From Mobula hypostoma (taxonomy: Eukaryota), in the NCBI RefSeq assembly GCF_963921235.1, contig NC_086097.1, forward strand, positions 158,350,001-158,414,000: 64,000 nt of DNA. The letters are read 5' to 3'. Both the position numbers and the translations under genes were made by a program. This document shows positions 5,811 to 52,760 of the stretch, in pieces; the stretch's first letter is position 1, and every line of letters begins with the position of its first letter. Under the pieces are notes generated by a model. That model ran no database searches. It had not been told where the DNA came from and worked only from the letters and a program-made list of their open reading frames with translations.

Positions 5811-6944
5811 TGATGGCTATCCGCTGGTTCCAGCTGTGATTCTCATCCCCTACAAAATCTTCACGGAAAGTCCTTTCATTGCAATGGTTTGATTGTGTTC
5901 GATTATTTTTCCTTGGGTTTAGTGTTCTAGATTATGCAAGTGTGGTATAAGCCAAGTCAGTACACACACTCAAAGTGGAATTGGGGCAATTTAGAAGAGG
6001 GAAGAAAGCTGGAGTGTGGAGAGATGGATTATTTGATGGTGCTGTAAGTGTTGGAGGAAGCAGAGTGTGCTGATTAGTTTTCCTCTGTGCTGTGTCATTT
6101 TATGATATATCCCTTTTCCTATTGCTAGGTGGTTCATTTAATCATAATAAGACAAACATGTTGACACAGCCAAATAATGGGTTATTTGGATGGGTGACTG
6201 ACGATTTGAACTGAGAGGTAGGAGGGTTTTAAGGAGTGAGGATAAAGGTAACATGAAAGTGTATATGGACTCCATTCTGGGACCAATAACTGTCATAATA
6301 CCCATTTCCACTACATTTTCTGATTGTATTTTTGTTTTCATTTTGTCTTGATGGCTAAGTGAATAAAACACAATACATCAGCCTACTATGGGCTTAAACC
6401 TATTTAATTTCTTTTGGTGCAAAGTTTATTGTTGTAGTTTCCTTGGCAACAGGCCTGCAAGACAGACAAATGTACAATTTTCAAATATTTCCTGCCCTTA
6501 TGATTAGTTAAGTGATAAATTTGACAGAGTGTTTCCATTTGAATGAGTCACAATTTTATAAGAAGCCTTTAGCAACAAGCTAGGCATGTTAAAAGTAAAA
6601 GGCCAAGTATAGTTCGATGCTCAGAATGTATTGAACAGTGACAGTTCTCTTCAAGAGGGAGTTAGATGCCAGCTGGTATTCTCTCAGCTTAAAAGAAGAG
6701 AAAGATAGAGGTTACATGGTAACATGCATTGATCCAAATGTTGGTGTGTATATGCACTGGATGCTTAGCATTTTCAGGGCCTCTTGCAGAAGTCTTTTTA
6801 TTCACGGATGGGTGTGAGCGTGAGAAATTTCCTTAATTTCTACTTTTCTGGATTTAAATGAAAATTTTCAAGAAGTGTATGCTAGAAATCTGAAATAAAA
6901 ACAGAAAAAGCTAAAATGTCACCTTATGTGATCAACTCATACAC

Positions 6945-7245
6945 AGAAACAAGTTGCTTTTGCTCCGGAGTCTGTGCTGACCATCAAGCACGTATTTACT
7001 GTAGTTTCAAATTATTTTGCCCAAATTCCCATCACCTTTTTCAAGATTCCACCACTCATCTGTACACAAAAGATAATTTGTAGCGGCCCGTTAATCTATC
7101 ATGTCCTTGGGACATGGGAGAAAATCAGAGCATTTGGGGAAACCCACATGGTCACAGGCAGAATGTATAAGCTCTGTATGTGTGGATCAGGATTGAAACT
7201 GGTTTGCTGGAACTGTGAGGCAGCAGTTCTATTCACTGCACCACA
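6945..7245 (-). mobile_element. V-SINE (HE1-like)
   Basis: Shares the GAAACCCACATGGTCACAGGCAGAATGTATAAGCTC block with the element at 1-256. Confidence 0.7.
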
Positions 7246-7611
7246 GAATCCATGCACCACATGTCCTGAACTGTCGAAGGGGCACCAACTAAGAAATTCT
7301 TGACTTTCTGCTGGTTCAGTTAATCATGTTGGTCCTGCAGCAGACTTATCAGTCATGCATAAGGAGAGGATTGTTAGCTGAGCTGAAGTACAGTCTTCAA
7401 TATGATGATTTCATGATGAGGCATCTAGCCAGTACATGCTGTGGATGAGAAATTTAAGTGAGGTGTCCTCAAAATACTTCAGTACTGGTGAGCAAAACTC
7501 AACTGTGAGATGATAAGGTAAGCAGTAGTCATTGTCAGAGGCATTGCTGGTGTTGGCAACTTTAGTGTTTGGCTTTAAGAATCAACATGTTTTGAGAAGT
7601 AGCATAAAATG

Positions 7612-7944
7612 GAACTTAAAAACCTAGATAGAATGGATGCGGAGAGGATGTTTCCTATAGTGGGCGAGGACCAGAGGGCACAGCCTTAGAATAGAGGGAT
7701 GTCTATTTAGAATAGAGATGAGGAGGTATTCCTGTAGTTAGAGGGAGGTGAATCTGTGGAAACCAAATCATTGGGCATATTTAAAACAGAAATGACAGTT
7801 TCTTGATTAGTCTGGGTGTCAGAAGTTATGGGGAAAAGGCAGGAAAATGGGGTTAAGAGGGATAATAAATCAGCCATGATGGAACGGAGGAGCTGAACTG
7901 ATGGACCCAGTGGCATAATTCTGCTCCTATGTCTTATGGTCTTA
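7612..7944 (+). mobile_element. CR1 LINE 3' end
   Basis: GGACCAGAGGGCACAGCCTTAGAATA and terminal CTGCTCCTATGTCTTATGGTCTTA, the reverse complement of the CR1 end at ~2720. Confidence 0.85.
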
Positions 7945-8125
7945 ATTCTGCTGATCATAGAACCAGTCAAAATATAAATTTTTACTTCTTAGCTCTTGTA
8001 TATTCAGTAAAAAAAAAAGTTCTTGTCTGTTTCATTTGTAGAAAAATGCATCTAGGCTTTCTTGTGTAAAATCCTTTTCTTCCAGGACTTTAAATTGCAG
8101 TTTATAAGGATTTGACTTAGTTGTA

Positions 8126-9398
8126 CAGGTGGCCCCCGTTTTCCGAACGTTCGCTTTACGTCACCTCACTGCTACAAAAGACCTACGTTAGTTACCTGTT
8201 TTCGCTAACAGGAGGTATTTTCGCTGTGACGTAAAAAGACAGCGTGCGCCCGAACAGCCAAGCTCCTCCCCCGGAACTGCATTCTAGCCAGCAATGCTTA
8301 AACATGTGCTTTATCTCGATTTATTTTGTGCATCCGTTAGCAAGATGAGTTCTAAGGTATCAGAAAAGCCTAAAAGAGCTCGTAAGGGTGTTACACTTAG
8401 CATAAAACTAGACATAATTAAGTGTTTGGATCATGGTGAATAAAGTAAGGACATTGTCCACGCATTGAACTTGCCTGCGTCCACCATTCGCACTATTTAT
8501 ACGTAGAGAGAAAGAATTTTGAAAGCTGCCGATGTTGCTGTTGTTTCGGCTCGTAGCAAAGTGGTCTCTCTTAGTCGGCATCCAATAATGGATAAAATGG
8601 AAAGTCTATTGTTTGAATGGATTGATGGGTGTACAAAGCGTGGTGTTCCATTAAGTTTTCTTATACTTGAGGAGAAATCAGTCAGTCTTTTTAATAAGCT
8701 GAAACAGAAGGTACTGGACGCTGGTGACGAAAGTGTTGCGGAAGTGGAATTTAAAGGTAGTCATGGGTGGTTTGATCGGTTTCTGAGGCGAGGAAAGCTT
8801 CATAGTTTAACATTTATCGGAGAGAGTGCTTCAGCTGATACTAAAACTGCCGAAAAGTTCCCAGCAGAACTGAAGAAAATAATTACAAAAGGTAGTTATT
8901 CGTATAAGCAAGTGTTTAACGGTGACGAAACTGGCAATTTATTGTTGTATTCCCGATTCCGGTAAGTGAAACTACACTGTACATACATTATTTGTACTTT
9001 ATATAGGCTGTGTATTTTTATGTGTCATTTGGTATGATTTGGCAGCTTCATAGCTTAAAGGTTACTGGAGAGAGTGTTTCTGCTGAGAGCGCTTGCACCG
9101 TGTTTGTGCCGAGAGCACTGCCATGAGATTTTCGCTGCGCTAGACAGTGCTGCAGAACAGAATTTCTACTTTATATAGGCTGTGTATTTATCATATAGTT
9201 CCTGCTTTTACTATATGTTACTGTTGTTTTAGGTTTTATGTGTTATTTGGCATGATTTTGTACGTTTTTTTTGGGTCTGGGAAAGCTCAAAAATTTTTCC
9301 CATATTAATAAATGGTAATTGCTTATCCACTTTACGACATTCCAGCTTGCCAACTGTTTCATAGGAACTCTCTACCTTCAGATAGCGGGGAAAACCTG
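8126..9398 (+). mobile_element. Tigger/pogo DNA transposon, internally deleted
   Basis: TA on both flanks (8124-8125, 9399-9400); imperfect TIRs CAGGTGGCCCCCGTTTTCCGAACGT / CAGGTTTTCCCCGCTATCTGAAGGT; transposase remnant inside. Confidence 0.92.
8345..8965 (+). pseudogene. Tigger transposase remnant (CENP-B-type HTH domains, truncated after the first catalytic D)
   Basis: MSSKVSEKPKRARKGVTLSIKLDIIK..ASTIRTI with 2 in-frame stops, in frame with ORF 8519-8965 containing FKGSHGWFDRF, GESASAD and QVFNGDETG. Confidence 0.9.
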
Positions 9399-9571
9399 TA
9401 CATTTAATACTTTATTAGCATTTAAGTAATATTCTAAATATGTTGTTGATTAAGCAGTCTTTATTTCAATACTTAATCATCATGTAAAAATACATGAATT
9501 GCGTACAGCATGATGTTACCACATGGTATGTGTGTGCCTTTCTTTAAACACGAGCTAAGACTCGCATTTAA
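9399..9571 (+). repeat. 5' LTR remnant of the Gypsy element (first few bases lie upstream of the Tigger; 3' end and PBS apparently deleted)
   Basis: Direct-repeat blocks shared with 11875-12119: CATGTAAAA(A/G)TACATGAATTGC (9481-9502 vs 11969-11990), TAAGACTCGCAT (9556-9567 vs 12048-12059), ATTTAATACTT. Confidence 0.8.
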
Positions 9572-9770
9572 AAACAAACCCAAGATGGCTACCAACTTGT
9601 TGAAGTGCAGCTAGATGTTTGAGTTAACAAAAAACACAGTGAGAAACAGTAGAGTAAAAAAAACACAGCCCATGCAGAAGCAGTTGAGTTAAACAAAAAG
9701 TCAGAAAATGGATGAATTCCTGGGTTCACAAACTGTGAATACCAAGTAATAATAAATAAAAGGAGCAGAA

Positions 9771-10988
9771 ATGGCTATCTATATCTGAAGATTGACACAT
9801 TTGATTGTACAATGGATAACTAGATTTTGTATACTAACTGGATTTAGCAGTATTTTAATGAAAGTGGAACAGCCAATGAGAAACAAGTACCAATTTTGCT
9901 GAGTGCTTTGCAGTTTGCTTCTAAGTTTAACTGCTCCAACCAAACCAGCTGAAATGAACATTGTTGAACTTATGAAAGTAGTGCAAGAACATTTAAAACT
10001 GAAACCATTGCTGATTACAGAACTCTGGTTTTATAAGTAGAATCAAAACGAAGATGAGTCAATTTCAGCATAGAATTGAAGAGATTGTTTGAGCATTGTC
10101 AGTTTGGTAACGGTCGTAATGATGCACTGAGAGATAGTGTAGTTTTGTGGAATAGTATAACAAAAGCATTCAAAAACGTCTCCTAACTAAAGCACAACTT
10201 GCATTTAAAAGAGCAGTTGAAAGTGCTGTGTCAGTAAAACAGCAGACAGAGGCATAATTGAGTTGTAGCCAGGAATGAAAGTAACCATGAACAAAATTGC
10301 AAAGTGTAAACAGAAACCGGCTTGAATGAACAAATTGCTTTACTGTTCTGACTGGGGCTCACATACACCAGACCAATGCAGGTTTAAAGGCAAAAATTAG
10401 ATAAAATGTGACAAAGTAGGACACATACAAAGAGCATGTCAGACAGACAAAAAACAAACTGTCCAGGGAAGAGAAAAAAGATAAAAAGTCAAGTTGCAGT
10501 TTTAGAAAGAGCACTAAACTGCATGCTGTTGATGAAAAATTTGATCATGATGAGAGTGACACAGGACTAAGATCCTTGAGATTTACCATGTGAAAACTAA
10601 CAATAGACAGGCAATATGGCTTATATCAGTAGTGAATGACAAACTAAAATGGAATTGGACTCTGGTTGGGCTGTTTCATTCATACCACAAAATGAGTTTG
10701 AATGGAATTTCAAAGATACTAAACTGAAGCCTGCAGATATCCAAATAAGAACTTAAATTGAAGGAAAGACAACACCTGTGGGAATGACATTCATAACAGT
10801 GAAATACAACAACCAACAAGCCACATTGAGCTTGAATGTGGTTAAAAAAAACAGGAGGACCAGCATTGAGGGACATGATTGGCTGAGACAACTACAACTT
10901 GACTGAAGATCCATTCACCAATTGCATGCCACATCCCCTGCGATGAAGCCACATGTAAGTGAATTAAGAAAGGTACTGGATAATGCCA
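9771..10988 (+). pseudogene. Gypsy retrotransposon gag-protease remnant
   Basis: Frameshifted translations LTAPTKPAEM, QEHLKLKPLLITE, ELKRLFEHCQFGNGRNDALRD, SIQKRLL; knuckle KCDKVGHIQRAC (~10404-10439); protease MELDSGWAVS (DSG at 10658-10666). Confidence 0.85.
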
Positions 10989-10989
10989 T

Positions 10990-11567
10990 GACCATCTCTA
11001 TGCTGTACACATAAACCGTTACCCAACAGAGGATAAGCAAATGTTGTGCCAACCTTTGTGCCTCTAGTTGGAAAGCAAATTGGTCAAGGAAGGACCATAA
11101 TGCTCAGAGAAATCATGAAGGTGGTGAAAGCAGTGGTCCAACTACAACGAATTTGTACAAAACTTATCTGAGAAAGCTTCTGATATGCTAAAGTGGCTTG
11201 GTTTTAAACTAGAAGAGAATTCAATGCGTTTCAGGAAAGTTGTAAGCATTTGGCTTTTGTGAGTGTAAAGTGCCAGAATCTACTCTGTGTGTATTAAAGT
11301 TATTGCATGAACTTAAAGTGGGAGACAAGAAGCTGCTTGCAGAAGTAGATACAAAGGCCAAAGCCCAGCTGGATGGATGGAAGGCCAAAAATAAAGGAGT
11401 CAGTGGAGATGAGAAAAAAAAGAGGATTTGTCAGATGATGATGTGGATGCGGAGTCCAAGAAGAGAGATCGGATCATAAAAGTAGGAATAGAAGGATCAA
11501 TAAGAGAAATGCACCTTCCCAAGATCAAGATGCACACGCTAGAAAAAGAAAGGGAAGGCAAAGAGAG
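10990..11567 (+). pseudogene. RBM25: Intronless RBM25 fragment (RRM region) embedded in the Gypsy element
   Basis: Pieced-together translation VGKQIG.RKDH..GPTTT.FVQNLSEKASDML..GLVLN*KRIQCVSGKL*AFGFCECKVPESTLCVLKLLHELKVGDKKLLAEVDTKAKAQLDGWKAK..ESKKRDRIIKVGIE..NAPSQDQDAHARKRK parallels RBM25 as I recall it (GPTTTVFVGNISEKASDML..CGLVLSWKRVQGASGKLQAFGFCEYKEPESTLRALRLLHDLQIGEKKLLVKVDAKTKAQLDEWKAK..ETKRRDQMIKGAIE..NAPSQESDSHPRKKK); contains stops and frameshifts; the first ~50 bp are less certain. Confidence 0.93.
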
Positions 11568-11874
11568 GTTTACTGAGCTGTCAGAATCACTTCCTCAGTT
11601 TCAGAGCCATCACGAAGAAGGCCCCAGAACCTGAGATTGTTTTCATAGCCTCAAGTCTCACCTGCCAAGCAGCATGATCACCCTTGTCAGGAAAGACGTT
11701 ATGTCACATGAGTAAGAAATTCTCCACAGTGATTAAATCTTTAGGCCTGAATGAAACATTTTAAAATTTACTATGCAGTGGATGTCTGTATATAGTAGTT
11801 GTATAATATAGTATACCGTGTATATAGTTGAGATGCATTCTATATTGAATTGTTGTTTATACCTGAGCAAGGAG
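11568..11874 (+). mobile_element. Gypsy integrase C-terminal tail, 3' UTR and degenerate polypurine tract
   Basis: ELSESLP..EEAPEPEIV..QVSPAKQ..CQERRYVT*VRNSPQ*LNL* fits the RRYxxRxRxPPxRL tail of vertebrate Gypsy integrases; purine-rich GAGCAAGGAG (11865-11874) abuts TGTTGT. Confidence 0.7.
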
Positions 11875-12119
11875 TGTTGTTTATTTAATACTTCAGTAGT
11901 ATTTGGGTAATGTAAATACAGTATGGTGTTGTAAAGCATTATTTGTTTGAACAATTCATTGTGCGTTACATGTAAAAGTACATGAATTGCAAACATCATG
12001 ATGCTACCAAATTATATGTACATGCTGTGCTTAAAGTAAACATGAATTAAGACTCGCATCTCTTGGCTCTCTTGTTTTCCTTTGAATTAGTTTATTGTTT
12101 TGGAGCTACAAAGCATAGC
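11875..12119 (+). repeat. 3' LTR of the Gypsy element
   Basis: Begins TGTTGT after the purine tract; direct repeat of 9399-9571; 3' end approximate. Confidence 0.8.
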
Positions 12120-14349
12120 TGACTTTACTATTCATGCTCATGAGCTTGTTTTTAGGCATTTTTAAATATACTGAGAAATTAAGACAACTGGCGCTGCACA
12201 TTAGACATCTTAAATCCTGTGCAACCAATTTCAGTAGCAAAATGTCTCTCGAGATAAGTGAAATATTTTGAAATATAGTGAGCACTCTTTTTGGAATATT
12301 GTGAGACAGAAAAGGAAAATATAAATGCTGGAAATGCCTAACAGGTCTGAAAGATGAAAATGGATTTTCATTTGAAGTATGGCTTCTGAGGGAAAAATAT
12401 ATTTCTTTTTGCTCTTTAGATATATCAATTCTTTGTGTGGGTAGGTTCTATTGGCAGAGGTATATTTTGATCATTTGTGTGCAATATTGAACTCATTTGT
12501 CTGCAGGGTTTGTCACCATGGAACCTCTCTTCAGCTGCATTTCTGACTGGGCTAATACAATGTGCGAAGGGCTGATTTTTTTACTCTGTACTTTGAGGAT
12601 ATCGTGACCAAAGTGGCTCCTTTTAATAACCTTCAGCCTCGCATCATCAAACTTGATGTTAGTGGGGAGAAAGATGTTTGATGTCCAAAAGCTTGTTGGT
12701 TTGGTGAAGTAGTGGAGAGTGTCAAGAAGCACTTTGGTAAGGTGAGAAATTTCTGATAATATGCTGGTCTGGGTGCAGTTGGCGAGGCGTTGAGGGTAAG
12801 TTTGAGAGCACATCATTATTGTGGGTGGATATCCATTGGTGCTCTGCCCTTGCGGGTCTAGATAGAGAATGGTTCCACACTGCCCTTGTCTTGTGGAGTG
12901 GAGATTGAATGGCCCAACAATGTACTTGTCTGGTGGAGAGGATGCTGAAGAGAGGGCAGAGAGGTATAATTTGACAGGGCTTTGTCCGGAAGTATGTAGA
13001 GTAAGAATTAAATAATTCTTGGAGAAGTTAAAATGAGTAGCAATGAATAGTTTGTTTAAAAGTTTGATATTCTTGAACACAAAATTCTCTGCTGAACTGT
13101 GGCTGATAATTGAAAAGTAGTTCATGGCTCTGGATTAATGGATCCCTTCAAACTTTGGTCCTGCGGAATTCAGTCTGTTTCATTTTTGCTGTTTTCTTTC
13201 TTAGCCTCTGAGTTTGCATGATTTTTTTCTTCTTTTCTTCTTGCCTTGTCCCTCAATCCACATATAAAGGTCCATGTGTTGAAAAACTCTAGATATCAGA
13301 AATCTGAAGTAAAAATTGAAAATGCTGTAAATGGCAAGTGGCGGAATGAAAAGGGACTTTCACTGTTCATTAATGGTCCTTTAATTTCGTTTGCTTCAGT
13401 GGTGAAAAATGCCTCTGCCACTTAAGACACTAAACGCCACCCAAATCCGTTCAGCCACAGTTTATCATTACATCCCTCATACAGATTACTCACATAGTTT
13501 GGGTCGCTCCAGTTTTATTTGCAAACATTTTAAAATGAACCGGCACCACAGCATTTCTTCAGGTACTTATAAAACCAAAGAAATTTATCACCGTTAACAG
13601 AAGCAGCAGCATGTGTGTGGTTTATATATAAGGTGTCTGATACATATGCACTTCTTCTGACCATGCTGACTGGCTACAGTTTTACAACTACAGTGAACTC
13701 CAACAATCCAGCTTGTCACAGACAGGTGTGATTCTGGACAAGCAGATGTCCTGAGCTATTAGATGCTGTTCACTATTAGCATTCCAACACACTTTGAATT
13801 CATTTAAAAAAAAATTCTTCACAGTGTAATTTTTTTCAATGATCCTGATGTTTAAATGGACTGTGGGAAATACAGCCCCTGCAAGTTTGACTGCATGCCG
13901 AACAGAACAGAGTGATTTTCGAGGGACCACAGGAATCAGCCTCTGGTGAGTCACTTGCTGACTTGTAGGAGCTTCTGATTCTGGCGCAGGTGGGGATCCA
14001 AAGTTGTTGTCTTCCGATCCCAGAGCTCTTGCAGCCCCCAGTACTGCTGCTTCCCCACATTCTGAAGGTCCATTCATATGAGTCACAAGCACATTGCCAA
14101 GTCCACCATCCTAAACTCTGAACTCTCTTGCGATTTCCAGTAATACTTTCACCTGAACCTGACAGTTGTGCTATTTCCACATTGCCTCGATATATCAAAC
14201 TTGTGGCATGTAGTTGTCCCCACTGTTCAAGAACTTGTCGACTTTCAATGCAAAGGCAGAGAACTTTGAAGTAATTGGGTGATAAATAACGAAGTGTGCC
14301 ATCTTATATCCAATCGAGGGCTGTTGATGGATGCAGAGGAAAACTGAGG

Positions 14350-38298: not shown

Positions 38299-38517
38299 CA
38301 ACACACACAAAATGCTGGAGGAACTCAGCAGGCCAGGGAGCATCTAGGAAAAGAATATAGTCGATGTTTTTGGCCGAAACCTTTTGGCAGGAGTGGCAAA
38401 GAGTTTCGGCCTGAAACGTTGACTACTCTCTTTTCTTGGATGTTGCCTGGCCTGCTGAGTTCCTCCCTCATTTTGTGTGTTTTGCTCAGATTTCTAGCGT
38501 CTGCAGATTTTCACTTG
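38299..38517. repeat. Second fold-back Penelope-derived repeat
   Basis: ACACACAAAATGCTGGAGGAACTCAGCAGGCCAGG / CCTGGCCTGCTGAGTTCCTCC..CATTTTGTGTGT. Confidence 0.85.
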
Positions 38518-39880
38518 TCATGAGGCACATCAAGACCCTGCTGCCCCCCTCACTGGAACCCCTGCAGTTCGCGTACCATCCCAACCGTTCAACAGATGAC
38601 GCTATTGCCATCACCCTCCACCTGGCCCTAACCCACCTTGACAAAAAAGACACGTACGTTCGAATGCTGTTCATAGACATCAGTTCAGTGTTCAACACAA
38701 TCATTCCTCAGAAACTGATTGGAAAGCTGATCCTGCTGGGCCTGAACACCTCGGTCTGCAACTGGATCCTAGGCTTCCTGACTGGGAGTCCTCAGTCAGT
38801 CCAGATTGGAAGCAGCATCTCCAATACCATCACACTAAGCATGGGGGCCCCCCTGGGCTGTGTGCTCAGTCCACTGCTGTTCACTCTGCTGACCCACGAC
38901 TGTGCTGCAACACACAGCTCGAACCACATCATCAGGTTCGCCGATGACACGACCGTGGTGGGTCTCATCAGCAAGAACGATGAGTCAGCATACGGAGAGG
39001 AGGTGCAGCGGCTAATGGACTGGTACAGAGCCAACAACCTGTCTCTGAATCTGAACAAAACAAAAGAGATGGTTGTTGACTTCAGGAGGACACGGGGCGA
39101 CCACTCTCTGCTGAACATCGACAACTTCTCCGTGGAGATCTTTAAGAGCACCAAATTTCTTGGTGTTCACCTGGTGGAGAATTTCACCTAGTCCCTCAAC
39201 ACCAGCAAAGAAAGCCCAGCAGCGTCTCTACTTTCTGCGAAGGCTGAGAAAAGTCCATCTCCCACCCCTCATCCTCACCACATTCTACAAAGGTTGTATT
39301 GACAGCATCCTGAGCAGCTGCATCACTGCCTGGTTTGGAAATTGCACCATCTTGGATCACAAGATTCTGCAGCAGATAGTGAGGTCAGCTGAGAAGATCA
39401 TCGGGGTCTCTCTTCCCGCCATTACAGACATTTACACTACACACTGCATCCGCAAAGCAAACAGCATTATGAAGGACCCCACGCACCTCTCATACAAACT
39501 CTTCTCCCTCCTGTCATCTGGCAAAAGGCACCGAAGCATTCGGGCTCCCATGACCAGACTATGTAACAGTTTTTTCCCCCAAGCCATCAGACTCGTCAAT
39601 ACACAGAGCCTGGACTGACACCAACCTACTGCCCTCTACTGTGCCTATTGTCTTGTTTATTATTTATTGTAATGCCTGCACTGTTTTGTGCACTTGATGC
39701 AGTCCTGGGTAGGTCTGTAGTCTAGTGTAGATTTTGTGTTATTTTTACATAGTTCAGTGTAGTTTTTGTATTGTTTCATGTAGCACCATGGTCCTGAAAA
39801 ACGTCTCGTTTTTATTGTGTACTGTACCAGCAGTTATAGTCGAAATGACAAAAAAAGTGACTTGATTTGACTTGACTTGA
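38518..39880 (+). mobile_element. Rex1/Babar-type LINE, 5'-truncated
   Basis: [52 protein letters not shown]; (GACTT)n tail. Confidence 0.95.
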
Positions 39881-41280: not shown

Positions 41281-42761
41281 TCATAGTCATAGTCATAGTC
41301 ATACTTTATTGACCCCGGGGGGAAATTGCTTTTCGTTAGAGTTGCAGCATAAATAATTAAATAGTAATAAAACAATAAATAATTAAATAATAATGTAAAT
41401 TATGCCAGGAAGTAAGTTCAGGACCAGCCTATTGGCTCAGAGAATCTGACCCTCCAAGGGAGGAGTTGTAAAGTTTGTTGGCCACAGGCAGGAATGTCTT
41501 CCTATGATGCTCTGTGTTACATCTCGGTGGAATGAGTCTCTGGATGAATGTACTCCTGTGCCCAACCAGTACATTATGTAGTGGATGGGAGACATTGTCC
41601 AAGATGGCATGCAACTTGGACAGCATCCTCTTTTCAGACACCACCGTGAGAGAGTCCAGTTCCATCCCCACAACAGCACTGGCCTTACGAATGAGTTTGT
41701 TGATTCTGGTGGTGTCTGCCACCCTCAGCCTGCTGCCCCAGCACACAACAGCAAACATGATCGCACTGGCCACCACAGACTCGTAGAACATCCTCAGTAT
41801 CGTCCGACATATGTTAAAGGAACTCAGTCTCCTCAGGAAATAGAGATGGCTCTGACCCTTCTTGTAGACAGCCTCAGTGTTCTTTGACCAGTCCAGTTTA
41901 TTGTCAATTGGTATCCCCAGGTATTTGTAATCCTCCACTATGTCCACACTGACCCCTGGATGGAAACAGGGGTCACCGGTGCCTTAGCTCTCCTCAGGTC
42001 TACCACCAGCTCCTTAGTCTTTTTCACATTAAGCTGCTGATAATTCTGCTCACACCATGTGACAAAGTTTCCTACCGTAGCCCTGTACTCAGCCTCATCA
42101 CCCTTGCTGATGCATCCAACTATGGCAGGGTCATCCGAAAACTTCTGAAGATGACAAGACTCTGTGCAGTAGTTGAAGTCCGAGGTGTAAATGGTGAAGA
42201 GAAAGGGAGACAAGACAGTCCCCTGTGGAGCCCAGTGCTGCTGATCACTCTGTCAGACGCACAGTGTTGCAAGCACACGTACTGTGGTCTGCCTGTCAGG
42301 TAATCAAGAATCCATGATACCAGGAAAGCATCCACCTGCATTGCTGTCAGCTTCTCCCCCAGCAGAGCAGGGCGGATGGTGTTGAATGCACTGGAGAAGT
42401 CAAAAAACATGACCCTCACAGTGCTCGCTGGCTTGTCCAGGTGGGCGTAGACACGGTTCAGCAGGTAGACGATGGCATCCTCAACTCCTAGTCGGGGCTG
42501 GTAGGCGAACTGGAGGGGATCTAAGTGTGGCCTGACCGTAGGCCGGAGCAGCTCCAGAACAAGTCTCTCCAGGGTCTTCATGATGTGGGAGGTCAATACC
42601 ACCGGTCTGTAGTCATTGAGGCCGCTGGGGCGCGGCGTCTTCGGCAGCCGGACAAGGCAGGACATCTTCCACAGCACAGGAACCCTCCGGAGCCTCAGGC
42701 TCAGGTTGAAGACATGGCAAAGTACTCCACATAGCTGAGGGGCACAGGCTTTGAGCACCCT
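41281..42761 (-). mobile_element. Rex1/Babar-type LINE, (TGACTA)n-tailed family
   Basis: LNDYRPVVLTSHIMKTLERL..VMFFDFSSAFNTI..LQKFSDD..YKYLG; (TAGTCA)n at the left end. Confidence 0.95.
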
Positions 42762-44224
42762 GTTACTTTCTCAGATCTTTCTCAGACCTGAAACCTTTCT
42801 TAGTCTTTTAAAGGTGGCCTTCTAGTTCAGATGAAGAACCAAAACCAAGTCGTTAATTTAGTTTTCACTTCTGAATGTAATTTCACTGCTGTGTATTTTC
42901 AGCCATCTACATTTCACTTCTACCTTCTGCCCAGTGTTATGTAGGACATTTGGTTCTAATCATCTCGCAGCAAGGTTTTATATGTTGACATCTTCATCAC
43001 TGACACCACACCTTTTTTCCCAGCAGTTTAATCTGCAGTTCACCATTAAGCAAAGATTTGTCTGTAATTTCCTTCCCTCCCCCACCCCCCAGTAATTCTG
43101 GAGTTGGGCTGAATAATTGTCTATCTGTCTAGAAGACAGGTTCTCAACTACACAGCAGGTGTTTGTCCGTGTATCAAGTTACATCAGTTACAGCCGCTTG
43201 CTATCATTTGTAGATTATATTCTTGAGGACTGCAAAAAGTGGCATTACACTTTTGTAGAATTACTAATGAGGAAGGTTTTGCTAGTTGAATCATTGCACA
43301 ATGTAGTAATGTAATACTATGAAGTCTGCATGAACATATATAGAAGTCCTATTTTAATAATGCTGCGTTTCTACCATGCATGACATACAAATAGCATATC
43401 TAATAGCCTCTTGATAATCCTTGCTCTCTAGTCTGTTTCAGGGGAAAAAAGCCATTGAAATATTTTACTTTTAATCCCAAAAGCAAAACTCACAGCATTT
43501 GTTATGCAAACCACATCTATTCTTTTCTTTTGAGTAGGAGTTAAGTACTTCATCCAGTTGCGATGCCTCTTCTGGATATGCACGTGGTGTGAACATGACA
43601 AGCACAAAGCGCGCTTCACTCACTTCCATTATATTGTATCATAAATGGTCATTTTGATAATTATCTACATGGTTGGTTCTTCAGTATCCAACTTCATACG
43701 CACCATTGCTGAAAGCATTTGAGAGTGAAAAATTGCCTACAGAACTAAAAAGCTGCCTTAAACAGTGTTTCAGAAGGTTCTTTTACCCAAGTTTATGCAT
43801 CATAAATTTACAACTGTGTAGATAGTGAACAAATTTGTTAGTTCAATGATTAACTGTGTAGGTAATGGACAAGATTGTTGTAGTTCAGTGATGTAAATTA
43901 AACTGTTGGCATTCAATCATGTTAAAGTAGTGGGTTTTTTTGTGCAAAGTACACACTTCAAGTTAGCTTGTTTTCTTTTAAGGCAAAAAGACCATTTGGC
44001 ACATCAGAGCTATGCCAGCTCTCAAAGCAATGCCATGTGCTGGGAGGAGGCCAGGTAGCATCTTTAGATGGGAATTAACAGATGACATTTTGGGCTGAGA
44101 CCCTTCATCAGGACTCCCATCCATAGATGCTGATCTCCTCTAGCACGTTGTGCGTATTGCTCTAGATTTCCAGCATCTGCAGTACCTCTAGTGTCAATAC
44201 CATCAATTGCACTCCCCCACGTAT

Positions 44225-47011: not shown

Positions 47012-48709
47012 ATAGTCATAGTAGTCATAGTCATACCTTATTGATCCCGGGGGAAATTGGTTTTCGTTACAGTTGCACCATAATAATAAATAGTAATAGA
47101 ACCATAAATAGTTAAATAGTAGTCAGTAAATTATGCCAGTAAATTATGAAATAAGTCCAGGACCAGCCTATTGGCTCAGGGAGTCTGATCCTCCAAGGGA
47201 GGAGTTGTAAGGTTTGATGGCCACAGGCAGGAATGACTTCCTATGACGCTCTGTGCTGCATCTCGGTGGAATGAATCTCTAGCTGAATGTACTCCTGTGC
47301 CCACCCAGTACATTATGTAGTGGATGGGAGACATTGACCAAGATGGCATGCAACTTAGACAGCATCCTCTTGTCAGACACTACCGTCAGAGAGTCCAGTT
47401 CCATCCCCACAACATCACTGGCCTTACGGATGAGTTTGTTGATTCTGTTGGTGTCTGCTACCCTTAGCCTGCTGCCCCAGCACACAACAGCAAACATGAT
47501 AGCACTGGCCACCGCAGACTCGCAGAACATCCTCAGTATCGTCCGGCAAATGTTAAAGGACCTCAGTCTCCTCAGGAAATAGAGACGGCTCTGACCCTTC
47601 TTGTAGACAGCCTCAGTGTTCCTTGACCAGTCCAGTTTATTGTCAATTCGTATCCCCAGGTATTTGCAATCCTCCCCCATGTCCACACTGACCCCCTGGA
47701 TGGAAACAGGGGTCACTGTTACCTTAGCTCTCCTCAGGTCTACCACCAGCTCCTTAGTCTTTTTCACATTAAGCTGCAGATAATTCTGCTCACACCATGT
47801 GACTAAGTTTCCTACCATAGCCCTGTACTCAGTATCATCTCCCTTGCTGATGCATCCAACTGTGGCAGAGTCATCCGAAAACCTTCTGAAGATGACAAGA
47901 CTCTGGGTAGTAGTTGAAGTCCGAGGTGTAAATGGTGAAGAGAGAGGGAGTCAAGACAGTCCCCTGTGGAGCCCCAGTGCTGCTGATCACTCTGTCGGAC
48001 ACACAGTGTTGCAAGCACACGTACTGTGGTCTGCCAGTCAGGTAGTCAAGAATCCATGATACCAAGAAAGCATCCACCTGCATCGCTGTCAGCTTCTCCC
48101 CCAGCAGAGCAGGGCAGATGGTGTTGAACGCACTGGAGAAGTCAAAAAACATGACCCTCACAGTGCTCGCTGGCTTGTCCGGGTGGGCGTAGACATGATT
48201 CAGCAGGTAGACGATGGCATCCTCAACTCCTAGTTGGGGCTGGTAGGCGAACTGGAGGGGATCTAAGTGTGGCCTGACCATAGGCCTGAGCAGCTCCAGA
48301 ACAAGTCTCTCCAGGGTCTTCATGATGTGGGAGGTCAATACCACCGGTCTGTAGTCATTGAGGCCGCTGGGGCACGGCGTCTTCGGCAGCCGGACGAGGC
48401 AGGACATCTTACACAGCACAGGAACCCTCCGGAGCCTCAGGATCAGGTTGAATACATGGCGAAGTACTCCACATAGCTGAGGGGCACAGGCTTTGTGCAC
48501 CCTGGTACTGACATCATCCGGTCCTTCAGCCTTGCTTGGGTTGAGACGTTTCAGCTGTCTTCTCACCTGTTCAGCTGCGAAGCCCACCGTGGTGGTTTCG
48601 TGTGGGGAAGGGGTATAGTCGTGAGAGCAGGGTGGGGGACTGTGAGAAGGGGTAGGAGGGGAGAGTGGAATATGTGTTGGTTGGGGGTCGACAACAGATG
48701 GCTCATGTC
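47012..48709 (-). mobile_element. Rex1/Babar-type LINE, same family as 41281-42761
   Basis: Near-identical RT ORFs (47871-48587, 47279-47818); TAGTCA tail. Confidence 0.95.
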
Positions 48710-51337: not shown

Positions 51338-52188
51338 TACTCTCTGTGTGATTGAGGGCATTCCTGCAAAGCATCATGGCCGGTTTTCTCCTATCAATTA
51401 TAAATAAATGATACGTAACTATTTCCAAACTAATTTTAACTCCAAAAGTCTGTTCCGACAATATGTATCTTCTTTTTTGGACTGCAGAGCAGTAAATGTG
51501 AAACTGTCCATAATTCCTCTGGCATGGAATTTCACAACTCCCACTCTTAGTGTTCAGACTCATCCTGTACACAGTGAAGGATGCTGGCCAGCCCCATATG
51601 TGCATGTGAAAACAAATTCAGAGAATCTACCAAATTGTGAATAGTTTCCTTATCCAGGGGCTGTAACAAGGGTCCGCAATACATCACCAGAAGCTAAGAA
51701 TAGCTCTGAGAACATGGGCCTCAGATTTCTACATCCATTTGAAATAGACTAATGAAATACTCAGTTCTGCCTGTTGATATTGTGGTGAACATGAAGAAAG
51801 AGAATTGGAAGGTTGGCTGGTTTGAAAGTGATCCAGGAAGTGATGGTTTTGTTGAAGTCTGTCCTTTCCTAATAATTGTGCAGAGGGAAGGATTTGCAGG
51901 GGTTGGTATTGATAAGTGAGACCTGATGTTTCTAGCAAGCAAAATGGGTGGTATACAATGTCAAATTGTTTTTTGTTTATTGAACAGTTGAACAGCGAAA
52001 ACTGCAGGTGCTGGAAATGGAAAAAAAAATACTGGAAAAACTCGGCATTTCAAACAGCATCTGCACATCTGTGGGGAGATGAACAGAATGAACACTTGAG
52101 GTTGATGATCTGTCATCAGATGATAGGCCAATGAGATATGGGGCAGGTTTTGATGTGCATCCACTTTTACTGTCACCCTTGCTACTTG

Positions 52189-52760
52189 CTACTTCCTGAG
52201 GAGGCTGAGGTCCTTCAACATCTGCCAGACGATGCTGAGGATGTTCTACAAGTCTGTGGTGGCCAGTGCTATCATGTTTGCTGTTGTGTGCTGGGGCAGC
52301 AGGCTGAGGGTAGCAGACACCAACAGAATCAACAAACTCATTCATAAGGCCAGTGATGTTGTGGGGATGGAACTGGACTCTCTGACAGTGGTGTCTGAAA
52401 AGAGGATGCTGTCTAAGTTGCATGCCATCTTGGACAATGTCTCCCATCCACTACATAATGCACTGGGTGGGCACAGGAGTACATTCAGCCAGAGACTCAT
52501 TCCACCGAGATGCAGCACAGAGCGTCATAGGAAGTCATTCCAGCCTGTGGCCATCAAACTTTACAACTCCTCCCTTGGAGGGTCAGACACCCTGAGCCAA
52601 TAGGCTGGTCCTGGATTTATTTCAAAATTTACTGGCATAATTTGCATATTACTATTTAACTATTTATGGTTCTATTACTATTTATTATTTATGGTGCAAC
52701 TGTAAAGAAAACCAATTTCCCCCTGGGATCAATAAAGTATGACAATGACTATGACTATGA
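52189..52760 (+). mobile_element. Rex1/Babar-type LINE 3' end, third copy of the (TGACTA)n family
   Basis: MLRMFYKSVVASAIMFAVVCWG...SDTLSQ; TATGACAATGACTATGACTATGA tail. Confidence 0.95.

Follow-up and report, generated by a model that had tools for sequence, protein, structure and literature searches.

An old LTR retrotransposon of Mobula hypostoma with a spliced RBM25 fragment in place of its pol core, probably captured by template switching and amplified as a family

How did a spliced piece of the host gene RBM25 come to lie inside an LTR retrotransposon, and did it multiply there? The question is raised by a locus in a 64,000-nucleotide stretch of Mobula hypostoma DNA (contig NC_086097.1), referred to here as the window. 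The element was read within positions 6800-12800 of the window and translated in three frames. Positions 9399-12700 were compared with four public runs, three DNA runs from organisms A, B and C and a fourth, X19, that is only guessed to be RNA. We consider it probable that the locus is an LTR element with RBM25 in place of the pol core, acquired by template-switch capture and followed by amplification of a family. The features are listed in Table 1.

Table 1. Features of the LTR element and of the transposon nested in it (window coordinates).
Feature	Position	Strand	Basis
Left TSD copy, GACTT (5 bp)	8114-8118	+	Identical to 12121-12125
5' LTR, first 7 bp, severed by Tigger insertion	8119-8125	+	Matches 3' LTR start at 11875
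Tigger/pogo-type DNA transposon inside 5' LTR	8126-9398	+	TA duplicated on both sides; TIRs; Tc5 domain
5' LTR, rest; last ~60 bp and primer-binding site absent	9401-9567	+	Alignment to 3' LTR
gag-like region, decayed; two degenerate CCHC knuckles at 10341-10445	9771-10445	+	Translation; putative identity
Aspartic-protease remnant (DSG at 10658-10666) and linker to 5' junction	10649-10988	+	Atlas match
RBM25 coding fragment, spliced, truncated 5' and 3' (Pro-rich leader, RRM, following charged exon)	10990-11567	+	phmmer; frameshift-aware alignment
3' remnant of retrotransposon ORF, likely integrase tail	11568-11745	+	Position, motif; high depth like gag and protease
Polypurine tract	11865-11874	+	Purine content; directly 5' of 3' LTR
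3' LTR, ~246 bp	11875-12120	+	LTR alignment; records diverging at 12117
Right TSD copy, GACTT (5 bp)	12121-12125	+	Matches 8114-8118

The limits of the element differ from those of the original prediction, which had placed the 5' boundary at 9399 and the 3' end at 12119. The 5' boundary was misplaced by ~1.3 kb: the 5' end is at 8119, and a Tigger transposon splits the 5' LTR. The 3' end was corrected to 12120. The element-wide GACTT duplication has a chance probability of 0.002 if the ends are fixed, 0.011 if 1 bp of slack is allowed and 0.049 if 3 bp are. The shared word grows to 6 bp once a single base of slack is granted. The outermost bases at 8119 and 12120 are both non-canonical in this copy, though the TSD is perfect, and the terminal base of the 5' LTR is unlike the start of the 3' LTR. 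The two predicted LTRs were recovered, with 131/183 identical positions in the alignment of the pair (E 1e-25); over 166 columns they are 23% different (K2P 0.28). Both LTRs are present, and the 5-bp TSD around the whole element indicates an integrase-type insertion. The purine tract expected before the 3' LTR was also found (9/10 purines). The sequence after 9567 has no convincing match to 12060-12120, leaving the last ~60 bp of the 3' LTR without a counterpart in the 5' LTR, and one public-run contig jumps from 9539 to 12060. At the 3' end of the element, 179 and 178 records from two runs depart from the window sequence at 12117, and their continuations are heterogeneous.

The nested Tigger inserted 7 bp into the LTR. 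Its terminal inverted repeats match at 18/25 positions, and it carries HTH_Tnp_Tc5 (E 2.7e-7, Pfam profile search). Since the CpG observed/expected ratio is 0.87 in the Tigger versus 0.18-0.29 in the LTR element, the Tigger is the younger of the two. Its transposase is internally shortened and internal direct repeats lie near 8796-9258. Elsewhere in the window, well preserved LINE-type reverse-transcriptase remnants were seen by eye at 38415-39618, 41429-42770, 47279-48707 and 51977-52603, some of them nearly identical to one another.

The interior had been predicted to run from a gag with a CCHC motif through a DSG protease and the RBM25 fragment to an integrase tail, in an element of the Gypsy type. 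The protease stood. The first Atlas match of its remnant was a retroviral aspartyl protease cluster (0.96), with a recognition value just under the tool threshold. The CCHC knuckles fared less well, the zf-CCHC profile giving E 0.048, below the cut-off, and the PDB search produced no match for either the protease or the knuckles. The word-index protein search with the protease was blank, a weak result given the decayed query, and no protease relatives were found in metagenome and viral contigs. The gag body was not recognised in Pfam, PDB or the Atlas, in which the gag stretch gave nothing above 0.81. The putative integrase tail had no Pfam match, and the Gypsy label had no library match, the domains diagnostic of Ty3/Gypsy being those that were lost. 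The label, the gag body and the tail are therefore assignments that we take from position and motifs. The order of a CCHC gag and then an aspartic protease also occurs in BEL/Pao. Chance Pfam matches on the 12 frame readings of the element (IL5, 7TM, Toxin_R_bind_N and HLH) were below the cut-off and were rejected, as was a match to Bee_toxin (E 0.18).

The enzymatic core is absent where the RBM25 fragment sits, as had been proposed. The same 12 frame readings gave no Pfam match to reverse transcriptase, RNaseH or integrase families, and the distance from the protease end to the purine tract is only ~955 nt, of which ~578 are RBM25. The pol core was thus replaced rather than interrupted.

The host fragment was identified with phmmer: the query 11087-11422, compared with 1.84 billion proteins, gave 254 matches at E <= 0.001 (best E 3.4e-25). 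The best matches are RBM25-type RRM proteins, which places the fragment in the RBM25 orthologous group. The third-best is P0004 (E 1.4e-24), which bears the name RNA-binding protein 25 and has the domains RRM_1 and PWI. When frameshifts are allowed for, the alignment to P0002 spans 11037-11567 with 100/174 aligned residues identical and a score of 391, compared with 27-34 for 8 shuffles. A V-H motif at 11005, by its spacing, pushes the likely start to about 10990-11000. The identity, the coordinates and the strand, which is that of the element, agree with the original prediction. Since the protein has up to ~825 aa and the insert breaks off near residue 215, the RBM25 piece is truncated at both ends. 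Five frameshifts and two stops interrupt it over 11037-11567, and this copy cannot code, again as predicted. The word-index protein search found no match for the RBM25 piece or for a reading that spans the junction; as both queries are decayed, little weight attaches to these negatives. The PDB search with the RBM25 piece gave only weak RRM matches (E 0.18-0.36), and the RBM25 query identified two distant loci among metagenome contigs. One contig of run X19, at depth 123.9, covers 11115-11160 with many differences and may be real RBM25 mRNA. Another X19 contig crosses the 3' junction at depth 2.1; it was rejected as a sign of expression because the run is only guessed to be RNA.

Exon borders were inferred from the protein matches of other vertebrates, not from the Mobula RBM25 gene. 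A vertebrate-type RRM exon occurs in 38 of the 150 matches listed (254 in total). The upstream exon is absent in 34/38 of these, and 31/34 of those without it read V right after the RRM exon, as a GT donor would. We read the matches without the upstream exon as gene calls that enter from an intron and leave again, and they would then mark both borders. The window passes through these borders, at 11245/11246 and 11407/11408, without introns (the RRM exon takes up 162 nt of it), which argues that the fragment is spliced. The predicted lack of introns, for which the crossing of exon-exon junctions had been proposed as a check, holds for at least these two borders. We take the whole fragment to correspond to exons 3-7 of human RBM25, with four junctions, two of which were examined here.

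The ends of the fragment were compared with exon borders in the same way, with the limit that one copy with ~12% decay cannot fix a junction to the base. On the 3' side, the RBM25 similarity ends at 11567-11570, within ~3 nt of an exon end indicated by four proteins: P0004 skips the exon, P0043 diverges after it, and P0002 and P0005 continue into the next exon. On the 5' side, the junction at 10988-10994 is within ~4 nt of what we take to be an exon start, near the G-T-P-M motif at the human exon 2/3 border. Read in the protease frame, the codons at 10994-11002 differ from T-P-M by at most two substitutions (chance ~0.12 over ten offsets). They are only a hint that protease and RBM25 may have been fused in frame in the founder. 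In accord with the prediction, the insert has no poly(A), the longest A run being 5, and no flanking duplication was found. An 8-bp repeat (10966/11546) did not qualify as a TSD of the insert, since it lies ~20 nt off both junctions and does not flank the insert.

Is the chimera confined to this copy? Both junctions are covered by contigs of organism B, the 5' one over 10963-11262 with 6 differences and the 3' one over 11358-11650 with 3. Organisms A, B and C share one flank beyond the end of the 3' LTR (7/628 differences; 31 differences and 20 gap letters), which dates the insertion to before they diverged. The flank has a single-copy-like depth of 10-23. Relative to it, bins containing only RBM25 reach 116-1,455x in A, 185-1,991x in B and 205-2,233x in C, with a peak that is 0.26-0.27 of the protease peak. 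Because copy number cannot be read directly from summed contig depth, we claim no more than hundreds to low thousands of sites.

Among the 15 of 2,175 joints listed, those from 11536, 11544 or 11551 to 11619 (RBM25 to tail) occur in 6, 5 and 6 contigs of the three DNA runs; the sides of these 3' bridging joints are only 24-38 letters at 80% likeness, and the tool flagged them as weak. At least 5 non-self records in 3 runs end at 10988. No non-self contig that spans the 5' junction in register was seen among the records listed, and the sharing of this junction is indicated only indirectly. Single contigs join protease to RBM25 sequence. In other copies an internal deletion (10753-11343) fuses protease and RRM sequence, and a joint that runs backward (11537-10886) leads from the RBM25 end into the protease. 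Rearranged derivatives thus exist. Two records, 664 and 1,535 nt long, align on the protease side and then continue for 442 and 1,161 nt without alignment; they are likely intact relatives. The depth, the 3' bridging contigs and the occurrence in three organisms support the predicted amplification, and a non-autonomous RBM25-carrying family at hundreds to low thousands of sites is likely. The present copy differs from other copies at 323/2,722 places (12%); half the LTR-LTR distance (0.14 each) is in line with this value, and the age is coherent. It is old and dead.

For the origin of the chimera we infer a single event, in which reverse transcriptase would have switched templates twice onto a co-packaged RBM25 mRNA. 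Enzymes of intact relatives would then have copied the hybrid in trans to hundreds or thousands of sites. After insertion, ~12-14% of the bases of this copy were substituted, the 3' end of its 5' LTR disappeared together with the primer site, and the Tigger struck. The anatomy fits LTR-mediated retroposition as set out in extracts of Tan et al. 2016 (PMC5131818). Microsimilarity at the switch points is diagnostic of such switching. Because both junctions are near exon borders, splice-assisted capture fits as well. An element transcript in or near RBM25, a trans-spliced RNA or a circular RNA would have joined whole exons to splice sites of the element, with reverse transcription and amplification to follow. 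Such a route would account for a 3' end of similarity that falls at the exon end shown by four proteins, and for a 5' junction near what we take to be the human exon 2/3 border (G-T-P-M). Splicing is also the process that produced SVA_F1 (84 copies) and pt_SVA_D6 (94 copies), according to extracts of PMC6139936. However, Tan et al. also describe template switches close to exon-exon junctions (PMC5131818, in extract), so that junction position does not decide between splicing and switching, and the ~12% decay of a single copy blurs its junctions at the level of the base. Splicing would further require that functional splice sites lie on each side, or that one gene received two insertions, and the open literature contained no paper on 'circRBM25' that we could find. 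We regard this route as rather unlikely. In an extension of it, splicing or a circRNA would have guided the founder's capture of complete RBM25 exons, which became joined in frame to Gag-protease; as protein or RNA, the RRM cassette would then have helped an element without enzymes to escape silencing or to be packaged. We think that quite unlikely.

A LINE could instead have inserted a processed RBM25 pseudogene into the LTR element, with a later deletion of its 3' part, the poly(A), one TSD and most of pol, and with amplification after that. LINE remnants are plentiful in the window, and the amplification of a retrogene within another transposon is documented for bat Helitrons (118 copies, PMC4224331, in extract). 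Against it, the insert has neither poly(A) nor a flanking duplication, the 8-bp repeat being off both junctions. The source of the fragment is the 5' quarter of the coding region, well away from the poly(A) end, and a second event with its breakpoint at an exon end is needed. These points make a LINE origin very unlikely and are consistent with the original prediction, which had argued against a LINE-made processed pseudogene: there is no 3'-anchored copy, and no poly(A) or TSD at the insert. It could also be argued that the locus is a one-off chimera or an assembly artefact, its depth contributed by unrelated RBM25 pseudogenes or by segmental duplication, as depth by itself does not show linkage. 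The contigs of a second organism nevertheless span both junctions, the flank stays at single-copy-like depth, and each of the three DNA runs has non-self contigs in which RBM25 is connected to the tail. The public-run contigs largely refute this reading, which we hold to be extremely improbable. Template-switch capture with later amplification is the explanation that we retain.

The mechanism of capture has already been published; the scale seems unusual for a host fragment carried by a vertebrate LTR element. As described in extracts of PMC5131818, LTR-mediated retrocopies also have a doubly truncated, spliced mRNA in place of part of the internal ORF, both LTRs are kept, the insert lacks poly(A) and TSD, and the product can remobilise as a non-autonomous element. 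In those extracts they are young and occupy one or few sites, whereas here old copies are present in three organisms and the depth suggests hundreds or thousands. Maize Bs1 and other maize LTR elements with gene fragments share the presence of host exon pieces in an LTR element, amplified with shared switch points (PMC5131818 and PMC2774510, both in extract). Bs1 has 1-5 copies and three donor genes (PMC5131818), and 425 maize LTR elements derive from at least 189 captures (PMC2774510), again in the extracts; the RBM25 element drew on a single donor gene, lives in a vertebrate and is apparently much more numerous. SVA_F1 (MAST2, 84 copies) and pt_SVA_D6 (STK40, 94 copies) are, like it, vertebrate non-autonomous retrotransposon subfamilies marked by a captured host exon. 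Unlike it, they are non-LTR elements that, in the extracts of PMC6139936, have one first exon spliced on at the 5' end, whereas the element here is of the LTR type and has several internal coding exons in place of pol. Bat Helitrons likewise multiplied host sequence to thousands (12,382 in all) in a vertebrate. They are rolling-circle DNA transposons with mostly genomic pieces, and their retrogene cases, with poly(A) and TSD, number 118 copies (PMC4224331, in extract). Among the host-fragment carriers compared, only these Helitrons reach thousands of copies, as far as the extracts of PMC4224331 go. A search of the open literature, with subscription papers and repeat databases outside its scope, found no description of an RBM25-carrying LTR family.

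If there are hundreds to thousands of datable, shared copies, the capture junctions could be mapped to the base and template switching separated from splicing. Such a family would also allow the advantage of a captured cassette for a parasite to be tested, and it would raise the apparent number of RBM25 pseudogenes and mislead both the mapping of reads to these genomes and their annotation. Were the quite unlikely splice- or circRNA-guided, in-frame RRM cassette true, it would explain how a host coding cassette on an LTR element reached about a thousand copies in a vertebrate, and the essential RBM25 gene would be exposed to anti-transposon small RNAs.
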